Source: a virus
Taxonomy: Duplodnaviria; Caudoviricetes
Reading direction: 5' to 3' (one strand)
Length of the DNA stretch: 64,000 bases
Virus record (IMG/VR): IMGVR_UViG_3300033074_000233
Span: 96,001-160,000 of that record
Shown: positions 5,915-22,699 of the stretch, in pieces
How the letters are laid out: the number at the start of each line of letters is the position of its first letter
Numbering within the stretch: position 1 is the stretch's first letter
The notes under the pieces: generated by a model
Databases searched by the model: none
Told to the model about the DNA's origin: nothing
What the model saw: only the letters and a program-made list of their open reading frames with translations
Program-made: the position numbers and the translations under genes

Positions 5915-6643
5915 ATGTCCAAGGTACTTACCCGCACATCACTCGGTTTTACCCATAACTATGCACTGGACATCGTGAACGCTGTTCCTGAGTATTTCAC
6001 GGGCAACTTCGATGGCGTCGCTTATACGACAGGTATCACGGGTCAAATTGATGGCACGATTCCGACTGCTGTTGTGAACGGAGCCTACTACATTTGCACC
6101 CGCGCAGGCTCTACGCCTTTGGTTAGCCCAGTTGTATTCCAACTCGGCCATATCTACAAGGGCAATGGAGGTGAATGGGTAGATCAAGGTATTGCCGATC
6201 AAACCCGCATGGTTCCTACGCTAGCACTTACTGGCAAAGACATTGCCTTTGAAAGTGGCATCGAATACACCTATACGAAAGAAGCGGGTGACAAGTTCCA
6301 CACGATGCAAAACGTCGTGTATAACTACGGCAAAGGTACTTGGAGAATTTCTGGCTCAAGCACTGCTGCTACGCCGACCTCTTACCAAGAGGCCTCAAGT
6401 TCTCCAATGCGCTACGGCGTAGGCACGTACAACGCACAGGCCACACGCGCTGCCGGCACCATCACACTGTCTTACACGGTTGACAGCGTAGAGCAATTCC
6501 GTCAGGACCCAAGAACAGTTACTTGGAAGGCCCTCACTGCACTTAACGGTGGTGATGTTGCTACTCTTTCTTCGCCTGTTACAGCATTCCGAACCGTATT
6601 TAGTGACACTACTCCCGGTCTTCTCGCAATCGTATTGAACTGA
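5915..6643 (+). CDS. Putative virion structural protein
   Basis: AAGGAG RBS; T/G/A-rich beta-type composition in a structural neighbourhood. Confidence 0.45.
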   Translation: MSKVLTRTSLGFTHNYALDIVNAVPEYFTGNFDGVAYTTGITGQIDGTIPTAVVNGAYYICTRAGSTPLVSPVVFQLGHIYKGNGGEWVDQGIADQTRMVPTLALTGKDIAFESGIEYTYTKEAGDKFHTMQNVVYNYGKGTWRISGSSTAATPTSYQEASSSPMRYGVGTYNAQATRAAGTITLSYTVDSVEQFRQDPRTVTWKALTALNGGDVATLSSPVTAFRTVFSDTTPGLLAIVLN

Positions 6644-6651
6644 GGTTGCCA

Positions 6652-7764
6652 ATGAAGCACATTGAGACTGCGGTGCTTGCGAGGCTTGAAGTCGCGTTTG
6701 CACCCGCAAAGAAAGCGGATAAGCCAAAGCCTAAGTATGGCTCAGATAAGTGGTGGAAGTCTCTGAGCAAGAATGAACAGAAGCAGTATCTCAAGGAGCA
6801 CCCGAAGTCAAAGTATAACCCAGCCAATAAGTTGAAGAAATCCAAGAACAAACTGGTTAAGAAGAAAAAGCCTCTTATTCCAGGTGTTGTTCCAGGTAAA
6901 GGCAAGCCACACACTGAGCATCAAATCCGAATGGATGAAAAGCGGAAGATGCGTCAGGCCCAATTACGCAAGGACAAAGAGCGTAAGAAGAAAGAAGCGA
7001 AGAAGAAAGACGAACTCCGCAAGAAGGCTGAGAAACGTGCTCAGGATGAGAAGAAGGCAAAGAAGAAAGAGAAACAGCCTAAGTTGACTGAGGCCCAGAA
7101 GAAGGCTAAACAGGAAGAAGAACGCTTGGCTGAGCAGTACAAGAATACCAAGAAGCCTGAGGACTTTGAGGCCCTTGAGGAACATAAGACAGCCTCACGT
7201 ACTGCCAAGTTTATTGATTGGTATGAGGAAACCGTCAACAAGGCTGTTGACAAGATAAAGCGTGGTACCCTTGAACGCATCGGCAACGTGATTGGCGCTG
7301 ACCTGGAAGACATGCTGGTGGCCAAAGATAGTCATAGGCCTCCCTCCGTTAGGCTGTACGAAGCCCTTAATAAGGCAATCGAGCGTAACGAAGCTGAACT
7401 CGACCAGATCAATGAGAAAATTGCTAAGGCTAAGGATCAACTCAAAATTGCTAAGGGCAAGAAGGATAAGGCAAAGAATCCAGATAGCATAGATGGATGG
7501 AATCAGAAGATTGTAAGCACCAAAGAACTTCTTGGCCGCTTGGGTGTGCAGCGTAAGATATTGATGAAAAAAGTAGAGGAGGGTCACAAGCAGCGCGATC
7601 CACTTAAGGCACGTGCTGATCGTTACCACATCAAGGAAGGTGAGGAAAGAGAGAAGGTTCGTGATCTTAGGTCACTTGGTATAAAGACAGGCCGGGCCAA
7701 GAAGGGTGGGAAAACAAAACCCACCAAGCCTAAGTTGCACAAACTGAAACGCGCTAAACGCTAA
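6652..7764 (+). CDS. Very basic coiled-coil protein with MKHIETA motif
   Basis: GAGG RBS; Lys-rich; WWKSLSKNEQKQYLKEHPKS motif. Confidence 0.6.
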   Translation: MKHIETAVLARLEVAFAPAKKADKPKPKYGSDKWWKSLSKNEQKQYLKEHPKSKYNPANKLKKSKNKLVKKKKPLIPGVVPGKGKPHTEHQIRMDEKRKMRQAQLRKDKERKKKEAKKKDELRKKAEKRAQDEKKAKKKEKQPKLTEAQKKAKQEEERLAEQYKNTKKPEDFEALEEHKTASRTAKFIDWYEETVNKAVDKIKRGTLERIGNVIGADLEDMLVAKDSHRPPSVRLYEALNKAIERNEAELDQINEKIAKAKDQLKIAKGKKDKAKNPDSIDGWNQKIVSTKELLGRLGVQRKILMKKVEEGHKQRDPLKARADRYHIKEGEEREKVRDLRSLGIKTGRAKKGGKTKPTKPKLHKLKRAKR

Positions 7765-8759
7765 AACGATTTGGCTAGTTCTTTAAGGATGTGAGAAGGG
7801 CAGTTTCCTGGGTCGAGATTCTCGTCCAGGGGACCGCCCTTTTTCTTTTCCATCTGACGTTGGATTTCAAGCAACTTAACCAGTTGCCTAGTGATGCGAC
7901 CTTTAAGGTCCTTCATGATCTTGTTACTTGCACTAATACCTGCTTTATCCGCATCCATCATAACGACTACCTTGTCCACAGGCAGAGACAGAACGAGGTT
8001 GCGCTTGTTTACACTCCAGTTACCTGTACCAAGAATGGCTAACGCTGGGATTCCCTTGCGTATCAGACGCAGTGCGTCACGCTGTCCCTCAACAAGGACA
8101 ACGTACTTCAAGCCTCTACGGCGTATCATACGCTCAACGAGGTCATACGGAAACAAACCCTTTTCCTTGATCCATTCACCTTTAAGGTTAGTGTATGACA
8201 GAACCTTCTTGGACGTTGGCTTTGTCCACGTGGCCTTAACTGCACCGACAATCTCATGCTCTACGATGATCGGGATAATCAGGCACTTGTTGTCGAAACG
8301 GTCTACGGCAACAGTGCATCCAATCTTGCGTAACAGTTTGCCTGGCACACTACGCCACGTTTCGTCCTCATCAATCGGCAGAGAGAGCAGAACGTCAAAC
8401 TCCCGCTCAATATCTTCCATGCTTATAGAGCCTGTTCCCAACAACTGGGTTTTCAGTTGCTTGTTCAACGGGTACATGCGCTCTTGCACAGCCGTACCAT
8501 CAGTAGCGCGCACGGCTATCTTGCCGAGGCCTAGTTTCTCGGCAATCTCATTCCAACTGGCATTCTTCTTGGGACACGTTTCACTAAAGCAGTGACCGAA
8601 CCCAATCGGAACGCGCCGATTAGTCTCGTCGATGTTGACGTAGAAACTCGGCGATTTCTCTTGGTGGAAAGGACAGCAAATTGCAATGCTGCTGGCCATG
8701 ACCCTTTTTAATGACAGCCTCATCAATTCGGCTACAACAAAATCTTTGGTGCTGCTCAT
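7761..8759 (-). CDS. DNA primase (CHC2 zinc finger plus TOPRIM)
   Basis: CPFHQEKSPSF...CFSETC; LVEGQRDA; MDAD. Confidence 0.9.
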   Translation of the reverse strand: MSSTKDFVVAELMRLSLKRVMASSIAICCPFHQEKSPSFYVNIDETNRRVPIGFGHCFSETCPKKNASWNEIAEKLGLGKIAVRATDGTAVQERMYPLNKQLKTQLLGTGSISMEDIEREFDVLLSLPIDEDETWRSVPGKLLRKIGCTVAVDRFDNKCLIIPIIVEHEIVGAVKATWTKPTSKKVLSYTNLKGEWIKEKGLFPYDLVERMIRRRGLKYVVLVEGQRDALRLIRKGIPALAILGTGNWSVNKRNLVLSLPVDKVVVMMDADKAGISASNKIMKDLKGRITRQLVKLLEIQRQMEKKKGGPLDENLDPGNCPSHILKELAKSF

Positions 8760-8785
8760 ACGATAAATCTCCGCTGTACCCTCTA

Positions 8786-8816
8786 TTTACAGAATCACAA
8801 ATCAATTCTGTAAAGT
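8786..8816. promoter_or_regulatory. Back-to-back pair of ATTCTGTAAA motifs (putative divergent phage promoters)
   Basis: TTTACAGAAT 8786-8795 and ATTCTGTAAA 8805-8814, between the divergent primase and nuclease genes. Confidence 0.6.
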
Positions 8817-8841
8817 GACTCGTTACCACAAAGGTGCACAA

Positions 8842-9891
8842 ATGGCAACGTCCAGCAAAACAAAAACCGTGACTAAATCATCCAAGTCCAAGGCAGCGCA
8901 TTCTTTCAAGGCGAAGGGAAAGGCTAAACATGCCGAGCGCATGGCCAAGTCTGATCCTATGGACTTCATTATCTCGGACCTGCGGTATTACATCGACCAG
9001 CAGACCAAGATCATCTACACGGACAAAGACCCAAACGAGAAGCCTTCGACACGGGAATCCGAACTGCACCCATCCTCATATCCGTACTGCGGACTACGGC
9101 ATGCCTATCGCCTTCTGTCTGGCATAAAGAAAGAGCCGTTAGACTTCTACGGTGAATACTACACCAGCCTCGGTACCATGAAGCATGAACTCATGCAGAA
9201 GTATCTAGGCCGAGGTAAGAAGATTCTAGGTGACTGGAAGTGCCTTGATTGTTCGCATCGCCTCAAACTCACGACGTATAAGAAGTGCCCCAAGTGCCAC
9301 TCCGTACGGGTCATGTACGAGGAAATTGGTATCAAGTTTGGTAAGTACACACACGGCCATATTGACGGTGTTGTGCAGATCAATGGCAAGTGGTATGTCA
9401 TTGACTACAAGACCACGTCCTCCAAGAAGAATGACCTGCACCGTAAGACAGGCAATGTGTACCCATACGGATACAACGTCGCTCAGATTTCCAGTTACGT
9501 GCCTTACCTCGAGGAATGCTACGACATAGAAATTGCAGGCTGGATTCTTATATACGTTACCCGTGACAGTTCCTTCCGTGACTACGTTATGGTCGGTGCT
9601 GAGATGGATAAGAAAGCCAAGAAAGCCAAACTGGAACAACTGATTCGCTATGATGAGCACTTTGGCAAGGTGATGAAACTGAAGGCCGATCTGCAACTCA
9701 AGTATTTCAAGCGTCTTGTACTGGAAAAGCCGTGCGAGTCCTTGGCACAGTACAAGAAGGAAATGCACAATTACGACTGGTGCGAGTTGGCTAAATCTGG
9801 TGCCTGCTTCGACGAAAGCAAGTTACGCATCGTTTTGGGCAATCTTGTAAATAAGGCGACAGGGAAACCTACCCTAATTGCCGAACTCTAA
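8842..9891 (+). CDS. Cas4-like PD-(D/E)XK exonuclease with inserted Zn ribbon
   Basis: HPSSYPYC, GHIDG, IDYKT, QISSY; C-terminal Cys cluster; internal CxxC...CxxC. Confidence 0.8.
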   Translation: MATSSKTKTVTKSSKSKAAHSFKAKGKAKHAERMAKSDPMDFIISDLRYYIDQQTKIIYTDKDPNEKPSTRESELHPSSYPYCGLRHAYRLLSGIKKEPLDFYGEYYTSLGTMKHELMQKYLGRGKKILGDWKCLDCSHRLKLTTYKKCPKCHSVRVMYEEIGIKFGKYTHGHIDGVVQINGKWYVIDYKTTSSKKNDLHRKTGNVYPYGYNVAQISSYVPYLEECYDIEIAGWILIYVTRDSSFRDYVMVGAEMDKKAKKAKLEQLIRYDEHFGKVMKLKADLQLKYFKRLVLEKPCESLAQYKKEMHNYDWCELAKSGACFDESKLRIVLGNLVNKATGKPTLIAEL

Positions 9892-10865: not shown

Positions 10866-11498
10866 ATGGCTAAGGAACTTGAAGTAAAAGACCTTAAGGA
10901 AGCCGATTACAATCCACGATGGATCAACGACAAACGGTTGAAGGCCCTGCAGAAGTCCATTGAGACCTTTGGTGATCTGTCGGGTGTTGTGTTTAACAGA
11001 CGTACCAAGCGCCTTGTTTCTGGTCACCAGCGACTCAAGACGGTACGTGACAAGAAGACTCGCATCGTTACCAAGCCATATAGCGACAAGTACGGTACCG
11101 TTGCTATTGGTCACATCGAGGTCAAGGATAAGAAAGGCGTCATCCAGATTCCATACCGTGAAGTAGACTGGGACGACAAGAAGATGGAGATGGCTGCCAA
11201 CATTGCAGCCAATGCTCAAGGTGGTCAGTTTGACAACAAGAAACTCGGCAAGGTTCTCGCCAAGTTGTCCAACGCTACCTTCGATGTTGAACTCGTAGGC
11301 CTTGATGACGTTACTGTCAAGACCCTTGTAAACGACTTTGAGAAGGCCTCAGGTGTTGTAGACGCAAAGGGTAAGCCAGTTGCTTCTGGCAAAGACAAGG
11401 GTAAGAGCAGCAAGTCCGAAGGCTTCCAGAAGATCAGTCCTGAGGACATGGAAGAAGACTTCGAGCACGAATGCCCGAAATGTAATTACAAGTGGTAG
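10866..11498 (+). CDS. ParB/Srx N-terminal-domain protein with C-terminal Zn ribbon
   Basis: ADYNPR...SIETFG...LVSGHQRL; CPKCNYKW. Confidence 0.85.
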   Translation: MAKELEVKDLKEADYNPRWINDKRLKALQKSIETFGDLSGVVFNRRTKRLVSGHQRLKTVRDKKTRIVTKPYSDKYGTVAIGHIEVKDKKGVIQIPYREVDWDDKKMEMAANIAANAQGGQFDNKKLGKVLAKLSNATFDVELVGLDDVTVKTLVNDFEKASGVVDAKGKPVASGKDKGKSSKSEGFQKISPEDMEEDFEHECPKCNYKW

Positions 11499-11506
11499 GT
11501 AACCGT

Positions 11507-12484
11507 ATGAAGTTTACTATGGCGAATGTCAACGCCAAGAAAAAGAAGTACACAGCCGTATCTACTTTCAGTGGCTGCGGTGGTTCGTCGCTTGGCTACA
11601 AGATGGCTGGCTTCAAGATGCTGTGGGCTAACGAGTTCATTCCAGCAGCACAGGATACCTATGAAGCCAATCACATAGGTACCTATCTGGACAAGCGCGA
11701 CATTCGCAAAGTAAAGCCAGAAGAAATCCTCAAGAAAATCGGCCTAAAGAAAGGCGAACTCGACCTGTTCGACGGTTCCCCACCATGCTCGGCCTTCAGT
11801 ACAGCAGGTGCGCGTGACAAAGGCTGGGGTACTGTAAAGAAGTATTCAGACTCCAAGCAGCGTGTGGATGACTTGTTCTATGAGTACATCCGCATTCTCA
11901 AGGGTCTACAGCCCAAAGTATTCGTAGCCGAGAACGTACCAGGTCTTGCGTCTGGTAAAGCCAAGGGGTATTTCGTAGAGATATTCCGTCTTCTCCAGGG
12001 TGCAGGTTACGTTGTAGAGGCCCGCATTCTGGATGCGTCACAACTGGGTGTACCGCAGGCGCGTAAGCGTCTGATCTTCGTTGGGGTACGCAAAGACCTG
12101 AAAATGAAGCCAGTGTTTCCGCAGCCCTTGTCCCGAGTAATTTCGGTCAATGACGTATGCCCAAACATCGCCTACATTAAGACCAAGAAAGACGGTCAGA
12201 TGAAGTACGTGCCTGCGAACATTCCTTCCCCTACCATTACGGCGAGCGATAGCACCAACTCGGAGACAGCCCAGTTCTCCTGCGGTGGCTTTATCGAAAC
12301 CCAAGATGGAGAGCAGCGCAAGTACAAGATCAGCGAACTCAAGAAGATTTTTACCTTCCCACCTGACTTTGAACTCACTGGTAAGTTTGAGCAGAAGTGG
12401 GAACGTCTAGGTAGATCAGTTCCGCCCATGTTCATGTATCATGTGGCCAAGACAATCGGCAAAGAAATTCTGGATAAACTATAA
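11507..12484 (+). CDS. C5-cytosine DNA methyltransferase family protein, probable carboxymethyltransferase
   Basis: Motifs I FSGCGG, IV GSPPC, VI ENV, VIII QARKR; motif X GRSVPP (Asn replaced by Arg). Confidence 0.9.
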   Translation: MKFTMANVNAKKKKYTAVSTFSGCGGSSLGYKMAGFKMLWANEFIPAAQDTYEANHIGTYLDKRDIRKVKPEEILKKIGLKKGELDLFDGSPPCSAFSTAGARDKGWGTVKKYSDSKQRVDDLFYEYIRILKGLQPKVFVAENVPGLASGKAKGYFVEIFRLLQGAGYVVEARILDASQLGVPQARKRLIFVGVRKDLKMKPVFPQPLSRVISVNDVCPNIAYIKTKKDGQMKYVPANIPSPTITASDSTNSETAQFSCGGFIETQDGEQRKYKISELKKIFTFPPDFELTGKFEQKWERLGRSVPPMFMYHVAKTIGKEILDKL

Positions 12485-12494
12485 GGAGAACTCC

Positions 12495-13547
12495 ATGAAC
12501 ATTAAGCGTCCGTTCCTCATGTACGTCGGCAACACCTCAGTTCTAGTAGAAATCAAAACGGCTGCTGGTGTTATTGAGTGGTGTCCAGAAGACGTTGTTG
12601 GTGTGTACACAACAGGTCCTGACGCGCTTACGTTTGGTAAGCCTGTTATCAATGACTTCAATGCCGCAGTGGCTGCTGGCGCCAAGACCTTTGTGGTTGG
12701 CTCTTCACCTACGAGTGGTATGATCGACGACTCGTGGATTCAGATGTTCTTCAATGCAATGGACGCTGGTCTGGACATTGCCTGTGGTCTACATGAAAAA
12801 CTCAACGACATTTCCTTCTTGGTAGACTATGCTAGAAAGGCAGGCGTAGTTATGCACGACTTCCGTCACCGTGAGGACGTGTACCCGAAAGGCACAGGCA
12901 TGAAGCGCCCTGGTATGCGTCTACTCACGGTAGGTACGGACTGTGCTTGCGGTAAGAAGTTCACTGCCATATCCATTGCGCGTGAGTGCAAGAAGCGTGG
13001 GCTTGCAGCCGACTTCCGTAGTACAGGACAAACTGGCTACCTGATTTCGTCTAGCGGCATTAACAACGACACGATTCCTGCTGACTTCCTTTCGGGTGCT
13101 GCTGAGTGGCTGTCGCCTGCGAACGCACCTGATCACTGGGATGTTATCGAGGGGCAAGGCGCTCTTTTTCATCCAGCCTATGCTGGAGGCAGTCTGTCCC
13201 TGCTTATGGGCAGTCAGCCCGACCTCATCGTTCTCTGCCATGATCCTGCGCGTGAGAAAGTACGTGGCCCAAAAGGCATGGACTTCAAGTTGATGTCCCT
13301 GGAAGAGGAGATCGAAGGCAATCTCCTCATGGGTAGTCGCACTAATCCAAAGATTCGACTTGGTGCTATCTCCATAAACGGTCGCTACGCTTTTCCTGAG
13401 GGCAATACGACTGCTTATCTGGATTACAAGAATGGGTTGATGGAACGCTTCGGCGTTCCTGTGTTTGACCCCCTTGTAGATGGCGTGTCATCCATAGTTG
13501 ACGTTATGGAATGTAAGAGCATGACGGTAAACAATGAAAAAGCCTAA
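12495..13547 (+). CDS. DUF1611 / DgcN-like P-loop protein
   Basis: AAGGAG RBS; ACGLH, VGTDCACGKKFT, STGQTG, DFLSGAAE, IEGQG. Confidence 0.85.
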   Translation: MNIKRPFLMYVGNTSVLVEIKTAAGVIEWCPEDVVGVYTTGPDALTFGKPVINDFNAAVAAGAKTFVVGSSPTSGMIDDSWIQMFFNAMDAGLDIACGLHEKLNDISFLVDYARKAGVVMHDFRHREDVYPKGTGMKRPGMRLLTVGTDCACGKKFTAISIARECKKRGLAADFRSTGQTGYLISSSGINNDTIPADFLSGAAEWLSPANAPDHWDVIEGQGALFHPAYAGGSLSLLMGSQPDLIVLCHDPAREKVRGPKGMDFKLMSLEEEIEGNLLMGSRTNPKIRLGAISINGRYAFPEGNTTAYLDYKNGLMERFGVPVFDPLVDGVSSIVDVMECKSMTVNNEKA

Positions 13548-14397
13548 GAACGTACCCAAACCACCAGCGAACGTACACGATGCCTTGCTGGATGAGTTGC
13601 GCTTTGTGCGTGACTCTGGTAAGCGCGCGGCTGTATTCCTCAGCGGTGGCGTAGATAGCCACTCGGTCTTGTTTGCACTGATAGAACTGGGCGTTCCTGT
13701 TACCGCGTATTCATTTACGCTGGACACCCACGAGAGTCGTGACTTCAAGATTGCCAAGAAGACCTGTGAGACAATGCACGTTCCATTTGTGCCAATAGTC
13801 CTTTCGACCGACGTAGCCAAGTTGAAGAAGTACGTTATCTACGTCGTGAAGAAACTGGGTGCGTACAAGAAGGTGGACATTGAATGCCTGTGGCCTATGC
13901 TGTCTACGTTGAAGCAGGTCGAGGAGGAATTTGTCATTACGGCTACCAGTGCTGACAGTCACTTTGCTTTGTCCAAGAAAGCCTGTATGCACTACAAGGA
14001 CAAGGTGGACTACTACAGGACAATCGTTTTCAAGAAGGCGAATACGGGACAGCGCCTTCATATGAAAAGTGAGTGTGCGAAACTGGGTAAGACCTATTTC
14101 ACGCCTTACGATACCACCCGCATGTGCTCGGAGTTGTACGGATATACATGGGACGAATTAAATAAGCCCAAGCAGAAGAATCCTATTCGCATTGCCTTTC
14201 CTGATCAGTTTGAACGCTGTAAAGTGACTCAGCACACCAACCTGCAATTAGGCGATAGCGGCATTGCCAAACACTTCGAGAAGTTGCTTGAAACCGACTT
14301 AAACACCCGGAAATATAAGTCGGTTATCGGCGTTTATAACGAGTTGGCGCGCAAGTATCTTAAAGTGACAGAAACAGAGGAAAACGACGATGACTGA
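13534..14397 (+). CDS. Asparagine-synthetase-like PP-loop ATP-dependent amide ligase lacking a glutaminase domain
   Basis: FLSGGVDS PP-loop near the N-terminus, TATSADSHF; only 287 aa. Confidence 0.75.
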   Translation: MKKPKNVPKPPANVHDALLDELRFVRDSGKRAAVFLSGGVDSHSVLFALIELGVPVTAYSFTLDTHESRDFKIAKKTCETMHVPFVPIVLSTDVAKLKKYVIYVVKKLGAYKKVDIECLWPMLSTLKQVEEEFVITATSADSHFALSKKACMHYKDKVDYYRTIVFKKANTGQRLHMKSECAKLGKTYFTPYDTTRMCSELYGYTWDELNKPKQKNPIRIAFPDQFERCKVTQHTNLQLGDSGIAKHFEKLLETDLNTRKYKSVIGVYNELARKYLKVTETEENDDD

Positions 14398-15109
14398 CGA
14401 CAAAGATAGTGTTGTACCAGGAAATAAGTGGGAATTTGATGCAAGCGTTGCGGCCTGTTTCGATGACATGCTTTCACGCAGCATTCCTTCATACAAGATG
14501 ATGCGTCAGACCACATATGCCCTTGGTACCAACATCATCGGAAATATGACGGCCCCTAAAGTTGTTGACTTGGGTGCTTCGCGTGGTGAGGCTATTTGGG
14601 AGTTCGCCGCACGTTATCCGAGAGGTGATTTCTATGCCCTGGAGATTTCCGATCCAATGCTGGACGTAATGCGAAATCGCTTTCAAGGTCAGACCAACCT
14701 GCATGTATGGCGTGAAGACCTTCGCGTCTGCAACGTCCTGCGTGAGATCAAAAACACCACGGTCGTTCTGTCGATTCTGACTCTCCAGTTTATTCCTATC
14801 GAGTACCGTCAGGCCCTTGTGCAGACCGTATTCGACAACTTGGACAAGGGCGGCGCCTTCATCCTTGTAGAGAAGGTTCTTGGCAATACGCCTTCAATCA
14901 ACTCCAAGTTCGTAGAGGAATACTACGAGTTCAAGCGTTCCAATGGATATTCCTACGAGGATATCGAGCGCAAGAAGGCTTCTCTGGAAGGCGTGTTGGT
15001 TCCGATCACTGCGAAGTGGAACGAGGACATGCTTTACTCAGTGGGCTTCCGTCAAATTGACTGTTTCTATCGCCACCTGAACTTTGCTGGCTGGATCGCA
15101 ATCAAATGA
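14390..15109 (+). CDS. cmoA: CmoA-like carboxy-S-adenosylmethionine synthase
   Basis: WEFDASVAACFDDMLSRSIPSY, DLGASRG, LTLQF, ILVEK, FKRSNGYS...LEGVL, NFAGWIAIK follow CmoA along its length. Confidence 0.85.
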   Translation: MTDDKDSVVPGNKWEFDASVAACFDDMLSRSIPSYKMMRQTTYALGTNIIGNMTAPKVVDLGASRGEAIWEFAARYPRGDFYALEISDPMLDVMRNRFQGQTNLHVWREDLRVCNVLREIKNTTVVLSILTLQFIPIEYRQALVQTVFDNLDKGGAFILVEKVLGNTPSINSKFVEEYYEFKRSNGYSYEDIERKKASLEGVLVPITAKWNEDMLYSVGFRQIDCFYRHLNFAGWIAIK

Positions 15110-15549
15110 TGAATCCATACAAACACCTCCTTACCAAGATGAAGTATCTGGTAAATGAGGACAAACGAGTAGACGACGCCGAGAAGGCAGACTTTCAATG
15201 GAGTATGGTCTTCACCAGAGGACCAGTGAAGTTCATGATAGGCAAAGGTGGTGTCAATACCATCTTCTACATCATGGGAGACAAGCGTGAGGTTTGCTTC
15301 CCTGATGATGCCTTGAAACTCCTTGAAAAGAAGTCGCTCGACAAGTACATTGCCTATGCGATCTATTCCAAGAAAAAGGAATTGGTTGCTGGGCCTTTCT
15401 TGTTTCACGATGATGCGATGGCACTACGCGCAGGTAAAGGCCAGTTCTTTATTGGCATTAAGGCAAGTGGGAAACTTGTTCCACTCTATGCTGCGAAGCC
15501 TAACCTGTTCGACAAACTATCTTGGTCTCCTGTAGTAGAAAAGAAATAA
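15106..15549 (+). CDS. Hypothetical protein
   Basis: Coupled ORF, 147 aa. Confidence 0.55.
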   Translation: MMNPYKHLLTKMKYLVNEDKRVDDAEKADFQWSMVFTRGPVKFMIGKGGVNTIFYIMGDKREVCFPDDALKLLEKKSLDKYIAYAIYSKKKELVAGPFLFHDDAMALRAGKGQFFIGIKASGKLVPLYAAKPNLFDKLSWSPVVEKK

Positions 15550-15560
15550 CGAGGTGAAAC

Positions 15561-17036
15561 ATGCCTGCTCAACGCATTACATACCTAACAAGCAAACCGT
15601 TTACGCTTAGCCAACTGATGGCCAAGACTCCGCGTAACATCCAGTACAACGCGGATGACACTCGCATTAAGCAGGCACGCAAGATCATTGACAAGGATAC
15701 CAACCAGCCAGCAGTAGTAGCCGTTGTTTACTCGACGCACGATGCTGATGGTAATCCAACACGCAATCCAATTATGCACAAGTGCTACATCCTGAGCCTT
15801 GATGCAAACAGGAAGCCGATTAACCAGTGCCACGTTCACCTTTCCTGCGACTGCTTTACGGGAGACACGCGGGTTCTTACGCCGTCTGGTTGGAAAACTA
15901 TATACGAACTAGCCGAACCCCTAGAACTAGGTAAGTTCGAGACTGACTATATCGTCAACGGAAAAGTAGTAAAAGGTTCTGCACCCTTTTATAAGGGTAA
16001 GTCAAAGGTATGGGAAATAGCCTTAGATACAGGATTAAAGATTAAGGCCACGAAAAATCAGAAATTCCTAGTAACACGAAAAGATGGAATTCGTAAATGG
16101 AGAACTGTTAAGAATCTTTCTGTTGGTGACTGGCTTGTTCCTAATTCAACAGAAAACATACCAGAAGTAGATGTAACCAGTAAAGTCTATCAGGATGCAC
16201 ACCTAATAGGCGTGATAATGGGCGACGGAACTGTTTTCTCTAGTGGCTCTCCTGATTTACAACTGTATGGAGATAAACAAACTGAAATTTGGAGTCTCAT
16301 ACAAAAACATCCAGCCGTTAAGGGTAAAAAGGTTGTCCAGCGAGACGGAATACGGGTAGAATTTAATCATACTGGTATGGAGCTTTTCAGTAAATTTAAG
16401 TACGAAAACAAGAAGAATGTACTGTTGTCTTCTCCAGAGTCTATCTTTGGATTCTTGTCAGGTCTAACTAACGCAGATGGAAACTGCGGACGGAATGGTA
16501 TTGTAATTGACGGAGATCTATCTTACCTTAAAATTCTGTTAGACGAACTACTTGCTCTTGGGCTTGTTGGTCCTAAACTGTCCTTATCCGATACAAATCG
16601 TAAGGGCACTCTGACAAATTACGGTGAGAGAACAAAGGATATGTATACACTTGTTATACCTGTTCCGACTATAAGACTAATAAAAAAGAACTTGCTACTG
16701 ACAGAAAAACACCAGAAGAACCTAGAAAAACAAGAAAAAAAGAGGCCACAAAATCGCGTGCCTAAGACTAAAATTACAGGTATTACTTGTGTAGGTAAAA
16801 AGCATGTGTATGATATAACTGTACCTGAAGGCACCAGATTTGTGGCTGAGGGAGTTATAGTCCATAATTGCGCCTACTTCATGTACACGCTGGAGTATGC
16901 TCTTAACAAACGTGGCAATGCAGACATTATCTTCTCCAACGGAAAGCCTGCTGTGGTTCGTAATCCAAGCAACAAAGGCTTTCTGTGCAAGCACCTCTAC
17001 CATCTGGCTGAATCGCTTGTCTCCAGAGGTATGTGA
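15561..17036 (+). CDS. SWIM zinc-finger protein, intein-containing
   Basis: Spliced extein (~152 aa) reads SCD-CAYF...LCKHL (CxC...CxH). Confidence 0.75.
   Translation: MPAQRITYLTSKPFTLSQLMAKTPRNIQYNADDTRIKQARKIIDKDTNQPAVVAVVYSTHDADGNPTRNPIMHKCYILSLDANRKPINQCHVHLSCDCFTGDTRVLTPSGWKTIYELAEPLELGKFETDYIVNGKVVKGSAPFYKGKSKVWEIALDTGLKIKATKNQKFLVTRKDGIRKWRTVKNLSVGDWLVPNSTENIPEVDVTSKVYQDAHLIGVIMGDGTVFSSGSPDLQLYGDKQTEIWSLIQKHPAVKGKKVVQRDGIRVEFNHTGMELFSKFKYENKKNVLLSSPESIFGFLSGLTNADGNCGRNGIVIDGDLSYLKILLDELLALGLVGPKLSLSDTNRKGTLTNYGERTKDMYTLVIPVPTIRLIKKNLLLTEKHQKNLEKQEKKRPQNRVPKTKITGITCVGKKHVYDITVPEGTRFVAEGVIVHNCAYFMYTLEYALNKRGNADIIFSNGKPAVVRNPSNKGFLCKHLYHLAESLVSRGM
15852..16868 (+). mobile_element. Intein with LAGLIDADG homing endonuclease (339 aa)
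   Basis: CFTGDT start, IVHN|C end, LIGVIMGDG and LSGLTNADG motifs; AT-rich. Confidence 0.9.
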
Positions 17037-20029: not shown

Positions 20030-20095
20030 TTTCTCCCGTGCGCGTATTTGGAGAGTGGCCTGAACACCCACTCTCCTTCTTTTCACGAGGTACAC

Positions 20096-22699
20096 ATGGC
20101 AATTAAGAAAGGTAAGGACGTAAAAGAGAAGAAGGTCAAGAAGACCAAGGAAAAGCCAGAGAAGAAAGGCAAGAAGGCGAAAGCCGAGAAAGAACCCAAG
20201 GTCAAGAAAGGCAAGAAAGGCCGAGTGATTGATGGTGACACTGGCGAGGTCCTGGATGACGATGACGGCATTGCGCTTCGTGCTCACGCTGCGTCCGAAG
20301 ACATGGATGCGATGCTTGACGCAATCGAGAAGGACGTTGGTATTGTTGCCGTTACCGCAGGTAGTCGTAACACAACCAGCACTGGCCTGCTTTCGCTTGA
20401 CCTGATGCTTTGTGGTGGCCTTGTCTCTGGTGGCTGGTATACCTTCTTCGGCGGTGAGCAATCGTCTAAGTCCACGCTGGCGATGACACAGATCGCACGT
20501 GCGGCTATGCAAGGCAAGATTCCGATCCTGTTGTACTTCGACTTCGAGGGTTCACTCTCCGAGTCGCTGGACTACATGCTGAGTATTGCACGGGCACAAG
20601 GTTTCAAGGGTAACTTGCAAGACCTCTTTGGCATTCAAGACCCGAAGACGGGCAAGTACGTCAAGAAGCCGTTGATTCGTCGGTATCAGGAAAGCGTTGC
20701 CGAGCGTTTCTTCGACCTCGTTGCCAAGCTGGAGCGTAGTCTGCCGGACAAACTCTATCGCAACGAAAAGTGGTGGTACGTTTACGAACATACCAAGGTC
20801 AATATCTCCAAGTACAGCGCCATCTCGGATAAGCAGTTGTACAAGCAGACTGGCAAACTCTGGGTTGAGACTGACAACGGCCACCCACAGGCTATGATAG
20901 TGGTTGACTCCTATCCGGCAATGCTTCCAGAGCGTCTGGATGAGGATGATGCTGGTGCGGGTATGGCTGCACAGGCCCGTATGTTCTCGGACAACATTAA
21001 GCGCGTCAAAGGCAAAATGTCGTCCAAGCGCATTGTAATCATGGGCGTGAACCAGTTGCGTAAAGCACCTATGGTTAAGTACGGCTGTCTACACGGAGAT
21101 ACCCAGATTCCGTTCGTAGATGGTACGTCGCACAGCATTAAGTCTATCGTGGAGCAAAAGATTGAAGGTGAGGTCTGGTCTCTAAACGAGGACACGGACA
21201 AGATAGAGCCTGCAAAGATTACAGGCTGGTTTAACAACGGAGAGGTAGACAAAAAATCGGACTGGATTACGATTACTACCACTAACGTAGTAGAGACACC
21301 CAATGGTGTTGCCTCTGTTACGGTTACGCCTGACCACAAAATCCTTACCCGACGTGGATGGAAAGCCGCGCGTAAGTTGAAAGTTGGCGATAAAGTCCTG
21401 AGTAAGTACGCATCTATCTACGAGGGAGAAATGCGCTCGGTGCTTGCTGGTGTCCTAGCTGGGGACTCTTGTATTGTTGGTGATTGCAGGAATAGTCACC
21501 TTAGACTTCAAGACTCGCAGAATGCCGAGTACGTTGCTTGGAAGCGCGACCTGTTGAAGGACGTTCTATCCTTCAACTTGCGCGGAACTAAGAAGCAAAC
21601 TTGGATTTCCAACAGGTATTACCAGTTGTCCAAGTTGAAAGAAAAACTCGGAGAGCGTGACCCAACTAAGTTCGCTAACGTGTTTGATGCCCGCAGCCTT
21701 GCTATTTTCTACATGGATGACGGTCATTTCAGGTCTGAGAGGAACACAAGTAGTATTTGTATCGGTCGTTTTAAAGGTAAAGAAAAACTTGAGCAGGTAG
21801 CAGAAATGTTGTCTGAAAAGTTCTGTGTGTCTCCAGTAGTTCGCGGCAAAAACCTTATGTTTTCTGCCGAGGATACGCGAGTTATGCACAGTCTAATTGC
21901 CAAGTATGTGCCAGAGCCTATGCAGTACAAACTTCTTCCTGAGTACAGGGGCAAGTATAAGGCGCATAAACTCAAGGCAAAAATCTCTACCAAGAACATC
22001 TGGTGTGAGATAAGTTCCATAGACAAAGGCTCAGACAGGAAGTTCAGGTCTAGGACGAAATACGACATTGAAGTGGCTAGCCATAGTAACTATATGGCGG
22101 GTAACGTAGCCAACGGATTCATTGTCCATAATTCGCCGGAATATGAGCCCGGAGGGGAGGCTGTCAAGTTCTTCTCGGACGTTCGTATCCGTATGGCCTC
22201 GCGTTCAGTTCTGGGTGGCACAGGTCAGATCGAGGAAGAACCGTCAGTAGAGAAACCGGGTGGCAAGGACGTGTACCGTTACGTCAACATGCGCGCAGCC
22301 AAGAACAAGTTGTCTGTACCGAACCTTGAAGGCTGGGCCCGTATCTGGGTGCGTGATGCCTACGGTAAAGCGCGTGGCTACGATCCGGTGTTCGATACCT
22401 TCACCTTCCTCAAGGAACTGAAACTGATTTCGGGTACCAAGAAAAACCTCGTTATCAAGTTGAAGGAGTTTGAAGGCAGCAAAGGCCTGACGTGGGCACA
22501 GTTCAAGATGCTGTGCATTGGCGAAAAGAAAATGGTGTTGCAGGTATTCAAGGACGCCAAGATCAAAGCCAAGCCGTTCAAACTGCGTGAGCGCCTGTTC
22601 AAGATGGTGTCTACGGGTAAGGCGACTGAGACCTACTTTGCTGCGCTTGCTGATGGCAGTGGCAAAGACAAGGACGATGAGGCACCGAGCGATGAATGA
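20096..22699 (+). CDS. recA: RecA/UvsX-like recombinase, intein-containing
   Basis: TGLLSLDL, GGEQSSKST, IVVDS, QARMFS, VNQLR, YG|SPEYEPGG, KNKL. Confidence 0.9.
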   Translation: MAIKKGKDVKEKKVKKTKEKPEKKGKKAKAEKEPKVKKGKKGRVIDGDTGEVLDDDDGIALRAHAASEDMDAMLDAIEKDVGIVAVTAGSRNTTSTGLLSLDLMLCGGLVSGGWYTFFGGEQSSKSTLAMTQIARAAMQGKIPILLYFDFEGSLSESLDYMLSIARAQGFKGNLQDLFGIQDPKTGKYVKKPLIRRYQESVAERFFDLVAKLERSLPDKLYRNEKWWYVYEHTKVNISKYSAISDKQLYKQTGKLWVETDNGHPQAMIVVDSYPAMLPERLDEDDAGAGMAAQARMFSDNIKRVKGKMSSKRIVIMGVNQLRKAPMVKYGCLHGDTQIPFVDGTSHSIKSIVEQKIEGEVWSLNEDTDKIEPAKITGWFNNGEVDKKSDWITITTTNVVETPNGVASVTVTPDHKILTRRGWKAARKLKVGDKVLSKYASIYEGEMRSVLAGVLAGDSCIVGDCRNSHLRLQDSQNAEYVAWKRDLLKDVLSFNLRGTKKQTWISNRYYQLSKLKEKLGERDPTKFANVFDARSLAIFYMDDGHFRSERNTSSICIGRFKGKEKLEQVAEMLSEKFCVSPVVRGKNLMFSAEDTRVMHSLIAKYVPEPMQYKLLPEYRGKYKAHKLKAKISTKNIWCEISSIDKGSDRKFRSRTKYDIEVASHSNYMAGNVANGFIVHNSPEYEPGGEAVKFFSDVRIRMASRSVLGGTGQIEEEPSVEKPGGKDVYRYVNMRAAKNKLSVPNLEGWARIWVRDAYGKARGYDPVFDTFTFLKELKLISGTKKNLVIKLKEFEGSKGLTWAQFKMLCIGEKKMVLQVFKDAKIKAKPFKLRERLFKMVSTGKATETYFAALADGSGKDKDDEAPSDE
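21086..22132 (+). mobile_element. Intein with LAGLIDADG endonuclease (349 aa) in RecA loop L2
   Basis: CLHGDT start, TPDH block B, LAGVLAGD and FYMDDG, IVHN|S end. Confidence 0.9.

Follow-up and report, generated by a model that had tools for sequence, protein, structure and literature searches.

A DgcN-like DUF1611 gene conserved next to the amide ligase gene of a jumbo phage locus for putative cytosine carboxymethylation

The window analyzed here, a stretch of 64,000 nucleotides (nt) from a tailed virus (positions 96,001 to 160,000 of the IMG/VR record IMGVR_UViG_3300033074_000233), contains at positions 10866-15109 a block of five genes that encode a ParB-like protein, the predicted DNA cytosine-C5 carboxymethyltransferase CmoX, a DUF1611 protein, the predicted ATP-dependent amide ligase CmoY and a homolog of CmoA, the synthase of carboxy-S-adenosylmethionine (Cx-SAM). 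The CmoA-CmoX-CmoY core and its ParB neighbor are known from published work, and what is new is the conserved DUF1611 module, which resembles the acetyltransferase DgcN. The scenario that we moderately favor is that a phage clade of DgcN-fold proteins was recruited from D-amino-acid catabolism as a partner of CmoY, placing on the DNA acylated amides of amino acids or diamines that are so far undescribed and are diversified by a racemase, a glycosyltransferase and duplicated DUF1611 genes, with the base of the phage in the window itself being unreported.

The assignment of DUF1611 to the ligase step stems from synteny. The gene lies upstream of cmoY in all 16 lineages inspected, directly adjacent to it in 15 (the window, L017, L021, L191, L193, L195, L197, L198, L200, L201, L291, L292, L294, and the AD1-type and SNUABM_7-type phages) and separated from it by a racemase-like gene in one. 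The DUF1611 proteins of the cmoY-adjacent lineages show 40-51% identity to that of the window. The order parB-cmoX-DUF1611-cmoY-cmoA is found again in L016, L021, L195, L200, L201 and L291, so that the five genes that a sequence-only reading of this DNA had singled out as a possible source of a new base indeed co-occur in related phages. Of that guess, the recurrence of the set is borne out by the exact order in six loci and a different base draws support from synteny, whereas further tailoring is still conjectural. In other lineages, the surroundings of the gene pair are rearranged: a gene for a 147-amino-acid (aa) protein precedes cmoA in L017, L193 and L197, cmoA is shifted upstream in L191 and L292, with DUF1611 still next to cmoY, and the L198 locus is cut upstream. 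The Alexandraviruses have the order cmoA-DUF1611-cmoY and differ from the window in that their Arg-bearing cmoX is unlinked, ∼17 kb away, and split by an insertion, and in that their CmoY belongs to a separate lineage, with 24-28% identity to the window protein. In L294 (positions 5983-9203), two tandem DUF1611 paralogs are followed by cmoY, with two cmoX genes and cmoA located 15-20 kb off. DUF1611 occurs with CmoY proteins of no fewer than two distinct lineages.

Bacterial-type DUF1611 genes, the only type among the matches listed from the metagenome and genome scans, were used as controls. Among these matches, cmo genes are present at none of the 160 loci, and 113 of the 160 share one neighbor family, the tested member of which is DgcA. 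Single-sequence scans of viral contigs found nothing, and no viral DUF1611 was seen away from cmoY, every clade member with examined context being located upstream of that gene.

The DUF1611 protein (12495..13547, plus strand, as are all genes of the block; PF07755, E 6e-55, plus PF17396) is a full-length homolog of DgcN (NF041892, PDB 7XRJ, EC 2.3.1.312), a D-glutamate N-acetyltransferase that acts on free D-amino acids and has the racemase DgcA as its partner. The match to 7XRJ has an E-value of 3.5e-72, and the folds superimpose with a Z-score of 40.4 and a root-mean-square deviation of 2.6 over 331 residues. The two-domain architecture of DgcN, DUF1611_N followed by the DUF1611 P-loop fold, is retained, along with ∼45 residues common to the phage clade and bacterial DgcN, including K21, H100, D149, D192, D197, E219, H226 and D243. 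However, the protein scores 355.7 bits against the NF041892 equivalog cut-off of 480 bits (other phage members, 274-312 bits), and its neighbors are cmoX and the DNA amide ligase gene, with no DgcA-type gene (PF13378) found in the record; it is, therefore, not classified as DgcN. The record comprises 216 kb and is 84% complete, and the absences reported for it here hold for that sequence and are thus unproven for the complete genome.

The relatives that, like the window protein with its GINNDT sequence, carry an INNDT-type motif group together in a single clade that excludes the bacterial-type sequences (Shimodaira-Hasegawa-like approximate likelihood ratio test support of 99 in a quick tree). 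The clade includes also 13 sequences of non-INNDT type, with gene context available only through close relatives in L292-L294. INNDT replaces the VAIDAV-type motif of the bacterial proteins, and the clade differs from bacterial DgcN by the changes of a hydrophobic residue to N191, A to T193, V to G232 and G to S235 and by the loss of R328. The changed residues lie near conserved motifs and may line the acceptor site, and their presence throughout the clade hints at an altered acceptor. We propose that the phage DUF1611 is a DgcN descendant that lost its partner DgcA.

The pathway proposed for the window draws on the system of Synechococcus phage S-B43, for which Yang et al. (PMC12783734; Nat Commun 2025) report that CmoA makes Cx-SAM, CmoX carboxymethylates cytosine in GC motifs to yield 5-carboxymethylcytosine (5cxmC), and CmoY ligates glycine onto 5cxmC to yield 5gcxmC. 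In the window phage, by analogy, CmoA would convert S-adenosylmethionine and host prephenate to Cx-SAM; CmoX would move the carboxymethyl group to cytosine C5 via C94, with R303 holding the carboxylate, a reaction demonstrated for the homolog and compatible with the residues checked here; and CmoY would adenylate the carboxylate of 5cxmC and join it to an amine. DUF1611 would then N-acylate, and probably acetylate, an amino acid or diamine bearing a second amino group, either prior to ligation or on the DNA-bound adduct, so that the end product would be an N-acylated amide of 5cxmC instead of plain 5gcxmC, shielding the DNA from host nucleases. It is highly probable that the first three steps operate here, because the homologs have been tested and the key residues are conserved, and there is a good likelihood that DUF1611 belongs to the pathway. 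The chances that it does so specifically as an N-acyltransferase capping the CmoY amine appear about even; N-acylation is preferred because it keeps the known reaction of the family and is the most economical chemistry. The DUF1611 module probably changes the final base.

A different role within the pathway would be that of a ligase or transferase, with the P-loop domain acting on the terminal carboxylate of an amino-acid amide such that the chain is extended and tandem paralogs add two units. The C-terminal domain of DUF1611 adopts the P-loop fold of ParA, BioD and CTP synthase (Z 12-13.5), and amide formation by BioD-type enzymes proceeds through acyl-phosphates; the tandem duplication in L294 is compatible with this possibility, as is the failure to find an altered CmoY pocket, which fits a CmoY still working on glycine. 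Yet the Walker-A Ser/Thr position is occupied by Lys (GKKFT) here and in most close bacterial homologs, and by Met in 7XRJ, so that nothing hints at ATP chemistry having been adopted, and the single characterized DUF1611 relative is an acetyltransferase; chain extension, accordingly, seems rather unlikely. A predicted complex of CmoY with DUF1611 scored 0.00, gave no verdict and is counted neither way.

The cultured jumbo phages share with the window the CmoA, CmoX and CmoY families and a sigma-like gene family, and differ in the accessory genes that surround the cmo set: PaBG and Y3 lack DUF1611, AD1 and Alexandra have it, SNUABM_7 and SNUABM_13 combine a GT4 glycosyltransferase with DUF1611, and SNUABM_1, SNUABM_3 and SNUABM_17 possess GT4, DUF1611 and a racemase-like gene. 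The GT4 gene lies ahead of DUF1611 in the SNUABM_7-type phages; in the SNUABM_3-type phages, it is again in front, and DUF1611 and cmoY are separated by an inserted alanine-racemase-like gene. In Erwinia phage SNUABM_3, the GT4 gene (L003:4718-5980) and the divergent alanine-racemase-like gene (L003:7008-7943) lie within the cmoA-DUF1611-cmoY cluster and are both annotated as hypothetical; the former occurs in 21 Erwinia phage records and the latter in 12. The racemase-like insertion and the GT4 gene indicate amino-acid tailoring chemistry at this spot, the former fitting the preference of DgcN for D-amino acids, and the SNUABM_3 cluster possibly makes a glycosylated D-amino-acid base. In phage Y3, a gene for a 2-oxoglutarate-Fe(II) oxygenase (L004:7077-7715) follows cmoY, where others have DUF1611 before cmoY, and represents a further accessory gene attached to this ligase.

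Alternatively, DUF1611 might just manage the amine pool of CmoY, for instance by providing the substrate or by acetylating D-amino acids that compete with it, and leave no mark on the DNA, the base being the known 5gcxmC or 5cxmC joined to one amino acid. DgcN and the racemase-like neighbor both belong to families that work on free amino acids, D-amino acids in the case of DgcN, and the window CmoY is a clear homolog of the S-B43 enzyme, SpCmoY. A racemase, however, would raise the level of D-amino acids rather than remove them, other phages make 5gcxmC without such a helper (PMC12783734), and the changed acceptor suggested by the substitutions across the clade counts against it as well, all of which makes this alternative unlikely.

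The core itself appears to be the published CmoA-CmoX-CmoY pathway and is, hence, known: four of the five genes match the published system with its ParB neighbor, and the SPPC motif and the diagnostic arginine are kept. This is the three-gene phage core that the sequence-only reading had mentioned as reported in phages, and its suggestions that Cx-SAM serves to make 5-carboxymethylcytosine and that the product is amidated agree, respectively, with the published pathway together with the arginine in CmoX and with the glycine ligation by the CmoY of S-B43 (PMC12783734). The predicted CmoX (11507..12484, from ATG 11507 or, alternatively, GTG 11492; PF00145, E 6e-54) has the CmoX structure 8YF3 as its top PDB match (E 1e-67). 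It contains the motif S91-P92-P93-C94, and its R303, invariant across nine CmoX homologs, aligns with R350 of S-B43 CmoX, SpCmoX (ERLGRSVPP vs ERVGRMVPP), where M.HaeIII has Asn. Several cmoX homologs in other loci carry inteins, and many of the viral contigs L241, L244 and L250-L282 have cmoY, then two tandem Arg-bearing cmoX genes, then cmoA.

The ligase (13534..14397; PF00733, E 7e-7; SGGVDS PP-loop) shares 34% identity with SpCmoY (E 2e-34) and consists of the synthetase domain alone, in line with the lack of a glutaminase domain noted earlier from the sequence; its best fold matches, at Z-scores of 17-20, are to AsnB, carbapenam synthetase and beta-lactam synthetase. CmoA (14390..15109; TIGR00740, E 5e-40) has the CmoA structures 1IM8 and 4GEK as its top PDB matches and is 27-29% identical to SpCmoA and 44-53% to most other phage CmoAs; K195 and R228 are invariant in 15 phage CmoAs. 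CmoB, already noted as absent from the window, was not found (PF08003) anywhere in the 216-kb record, and neither was chorismate mutase. In L191, a chorismate mutase gene (L191:36-317) lies immediately ahead of cmoA and is a likely supplier of prephenate, which fits the need for that substrate. A HAD_PNKP-family phosphatase is encoded 3' of cmoA in a subgroup with divergent CmoA (L017:6366-6854, L193:10149-10655 and L197:10071-10526), and the DUF1611-negative L229 has an open reading frame (ORF) of similar appearance.

The S-B43 and window systems are, thus, alike in the clustering of the three enzymes, the SPPC motif and R350 equivalent, the glutaminase-free ligase, the ParB neighbor and the lack of a detected CmoB; the window differs in having the extra DUF1611 gene, another gene order, a CmoY on another branch of the CmoY tree and a target-recognition region of CmoX of the PaBG type, unlike that of S-B43. 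Because of this last difference, the GC motif of S-B43 may not hold for the window CmoX; the GC dinucleotide ratio is 1.02 in this genome, that is, not depleted, vs 0.65 at the S-B43 locus. Across the whole record, AGCT is nearly absent (61 sites vs ∼725 expected, an observed-to-expected ratio of 0.08), CCWGG stands at 0.5 and many six-base palindromes are near zero (ATCGAT, 0 of 50), whereas palindromes with a GGCC core are not depleted. The depletion of AGCT is limited to this genome and a close relative, other DUF1611 loci being without it. Palindrome depletion probably reflects avoidance of host restriction, and GGCC or AGCT could be the target of CmoX.

The core might not carboxymethylate at all, if the methyltransferase made plain 5-methylcytosine and the CmoA-like protein were an ordinary methyltransferase. 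The modest similarity of the window CmoA to SpCmoA and its score below the curated cut-off (see below) leave some room for this, and so does the strong avoidance of many palindromes that persists in the genome, which implies that protection is at best partial. Conversely, SPPC and the arginine, by which 5,615 CmoX candidates were selected, many with a ParB neighbor, are both present, wild-type SpCmoX uses Cx-SAM only (PMC12783734), and cmoA, cmoX and cmoY co-occur across dozens of loci, which together render plain methylation very unlikely. In the text examined of PMC12783734, protection by 5cxmC is demonstrated against HhaI only, and its authors state that 5cxmC derivatives with other amines, as well as additional modifications, are still to be discovered.

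Several observations weigh against an acylated base made with the help of DUF1611. Many of the DUF1611-positive lineages are related, with one CmoY clade of seven, so that the 16 lineages do not equal 16 independent events. The gene is dispensable for the system, being absent from S-B43, PaBG and Y3 and from each of the 80 closest viral cmoY loci, which points to an optional gene that goes with the ligase and not with cmoX or cmoA. We found no CmoY residue that reliably tells DUF1611-positive and DUF1611-negative ligases apart, and the window ligase may, therefore, still use glycine. CmoA falls under the curated TIGR00740 cut-off (138 vs 193 bits), and its Lys196 occupies the position of Arg199 of Escherichia coli CmoA; the active SpCmoA has Glu there. 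Finally, no racemase, arginase or glycosyltransferase and no amine-supplying gene were found in the record, and arginase was also not found in four Alexandraviruses. Tyr161 of CmoY was considered as a marker of the DUF1611-linked ligases and held in nine of nine at first, then failed in L294.

The relatedness of the positive lineages, the patchy distribution of DUF1611 and the presence of passengers in phage operons could also be taken to mean that the gene is an unrelated host-takeover function, in D-glutamate or peptidoglycan metabolism, that arrived before cmoY by chance and was co-inherited. The position adjacent to cmoY persists, however, through several rearrangements and a duplication and across two CmoY lineages, and the searches made here found no viral DUF1611 elsewhere, which makes a passenger quite improbable.

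The layout of the block is as first described from the sequence: five ORFs on the plus strand, without internal stops, abut or overlap, and the family matches agree. DUF1611 overlaps the ligase gene by 14 nt, the ligase gene overlaps cmoA by 8 nt, and an AAGGAGA ribosome-binding site precedes ATG 12495. The block is part of a longer co-directional run, with a gene for a 317-aa protein stopping 8 nt ahead of parB and the 147-aa gene overlapping the end of cmoA by 4 nt; a promoter and terminator scan around the block gave matches at chance level only, so that the limits of the operon are not defined by detectable signals. Comparison with the close relative L016 (proteins 96-98% identical) yields ratios of nonsynonymous to synonymous substitution rates of 0.03 for CmoX, 0.07 for DUF1611, 0.02 for CmoY and 0.03 for CmoA, that is, the four tested enzymes are under purifying selection. 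The record is related to the PaBG-, Y3- and Xanthomonas-type jumbo phages, to which the sigma-like gene family is common, and a search of sequencing runs recovered two unlabeled runs with the full locus and two wastewater runs at a share of ∼0.2, and gave no usable RNA data.

The ParB-like protein (10866..11498; 210 aa, with a C-terminal CxxC) has no Pfam match and is assigned through PHROG 620 only (E 6e-33); it is 49% identical to PaBG_00176. A ParBc neighbor is frequent beside CmoX candidates (PMC12783734), as the sequence-only reading had supposed for such modification clusters. Downstream, the 147-aa protein of PHROG 23597 (15106..15549, plus strand) matched no family, and an atlas search was blank. 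In the related jumbo phages, its gene is mostly found beside cmoY and cmoA or between the two: in PaBG and L231-L236 it stands after cmoA and before cmoY, and in L017, L193, L197 and L229 after cmoY and before cmoA. It is absent at the S-B43 locus and is possibly a sixth member of the system or merely a conserved neighbor. Further along the window, a gene at 15561-17036 contains an intein and has no function assigned, and another intein is found in a RecA-like gene at 20048-22699, with the family taken from its L016 relative.

No mention of DUF1611, acetylation or racemases was found in the text and supplements examined of PMC12783734, and a literature search, mainly of non-subscription journals, turned up no report that connects DUF1611 or DgcN with DNA modification. 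AD1_017 is annotated as DUF1611, and the sole phage paper found to name DUF1611 lists this gene with no function given; no chemical characterization of the DNA of the cultured phages was found in the literature searched. The locus, then, singles out one enzyme family as a candidate for further modification of 5cxmC, and the cultured phages of Erwinia, Dickeya and Pseudomonas represent a graded set of accessory genes on one core. Should the proposed role of DUF1611 be wrong, the locus is one more member of a known system; should it be correct, these phages would possess a new DNA base, DUF1611 would have its first role outside D-glutamate catabolism, and more DNA-labeling enzymes would become available.

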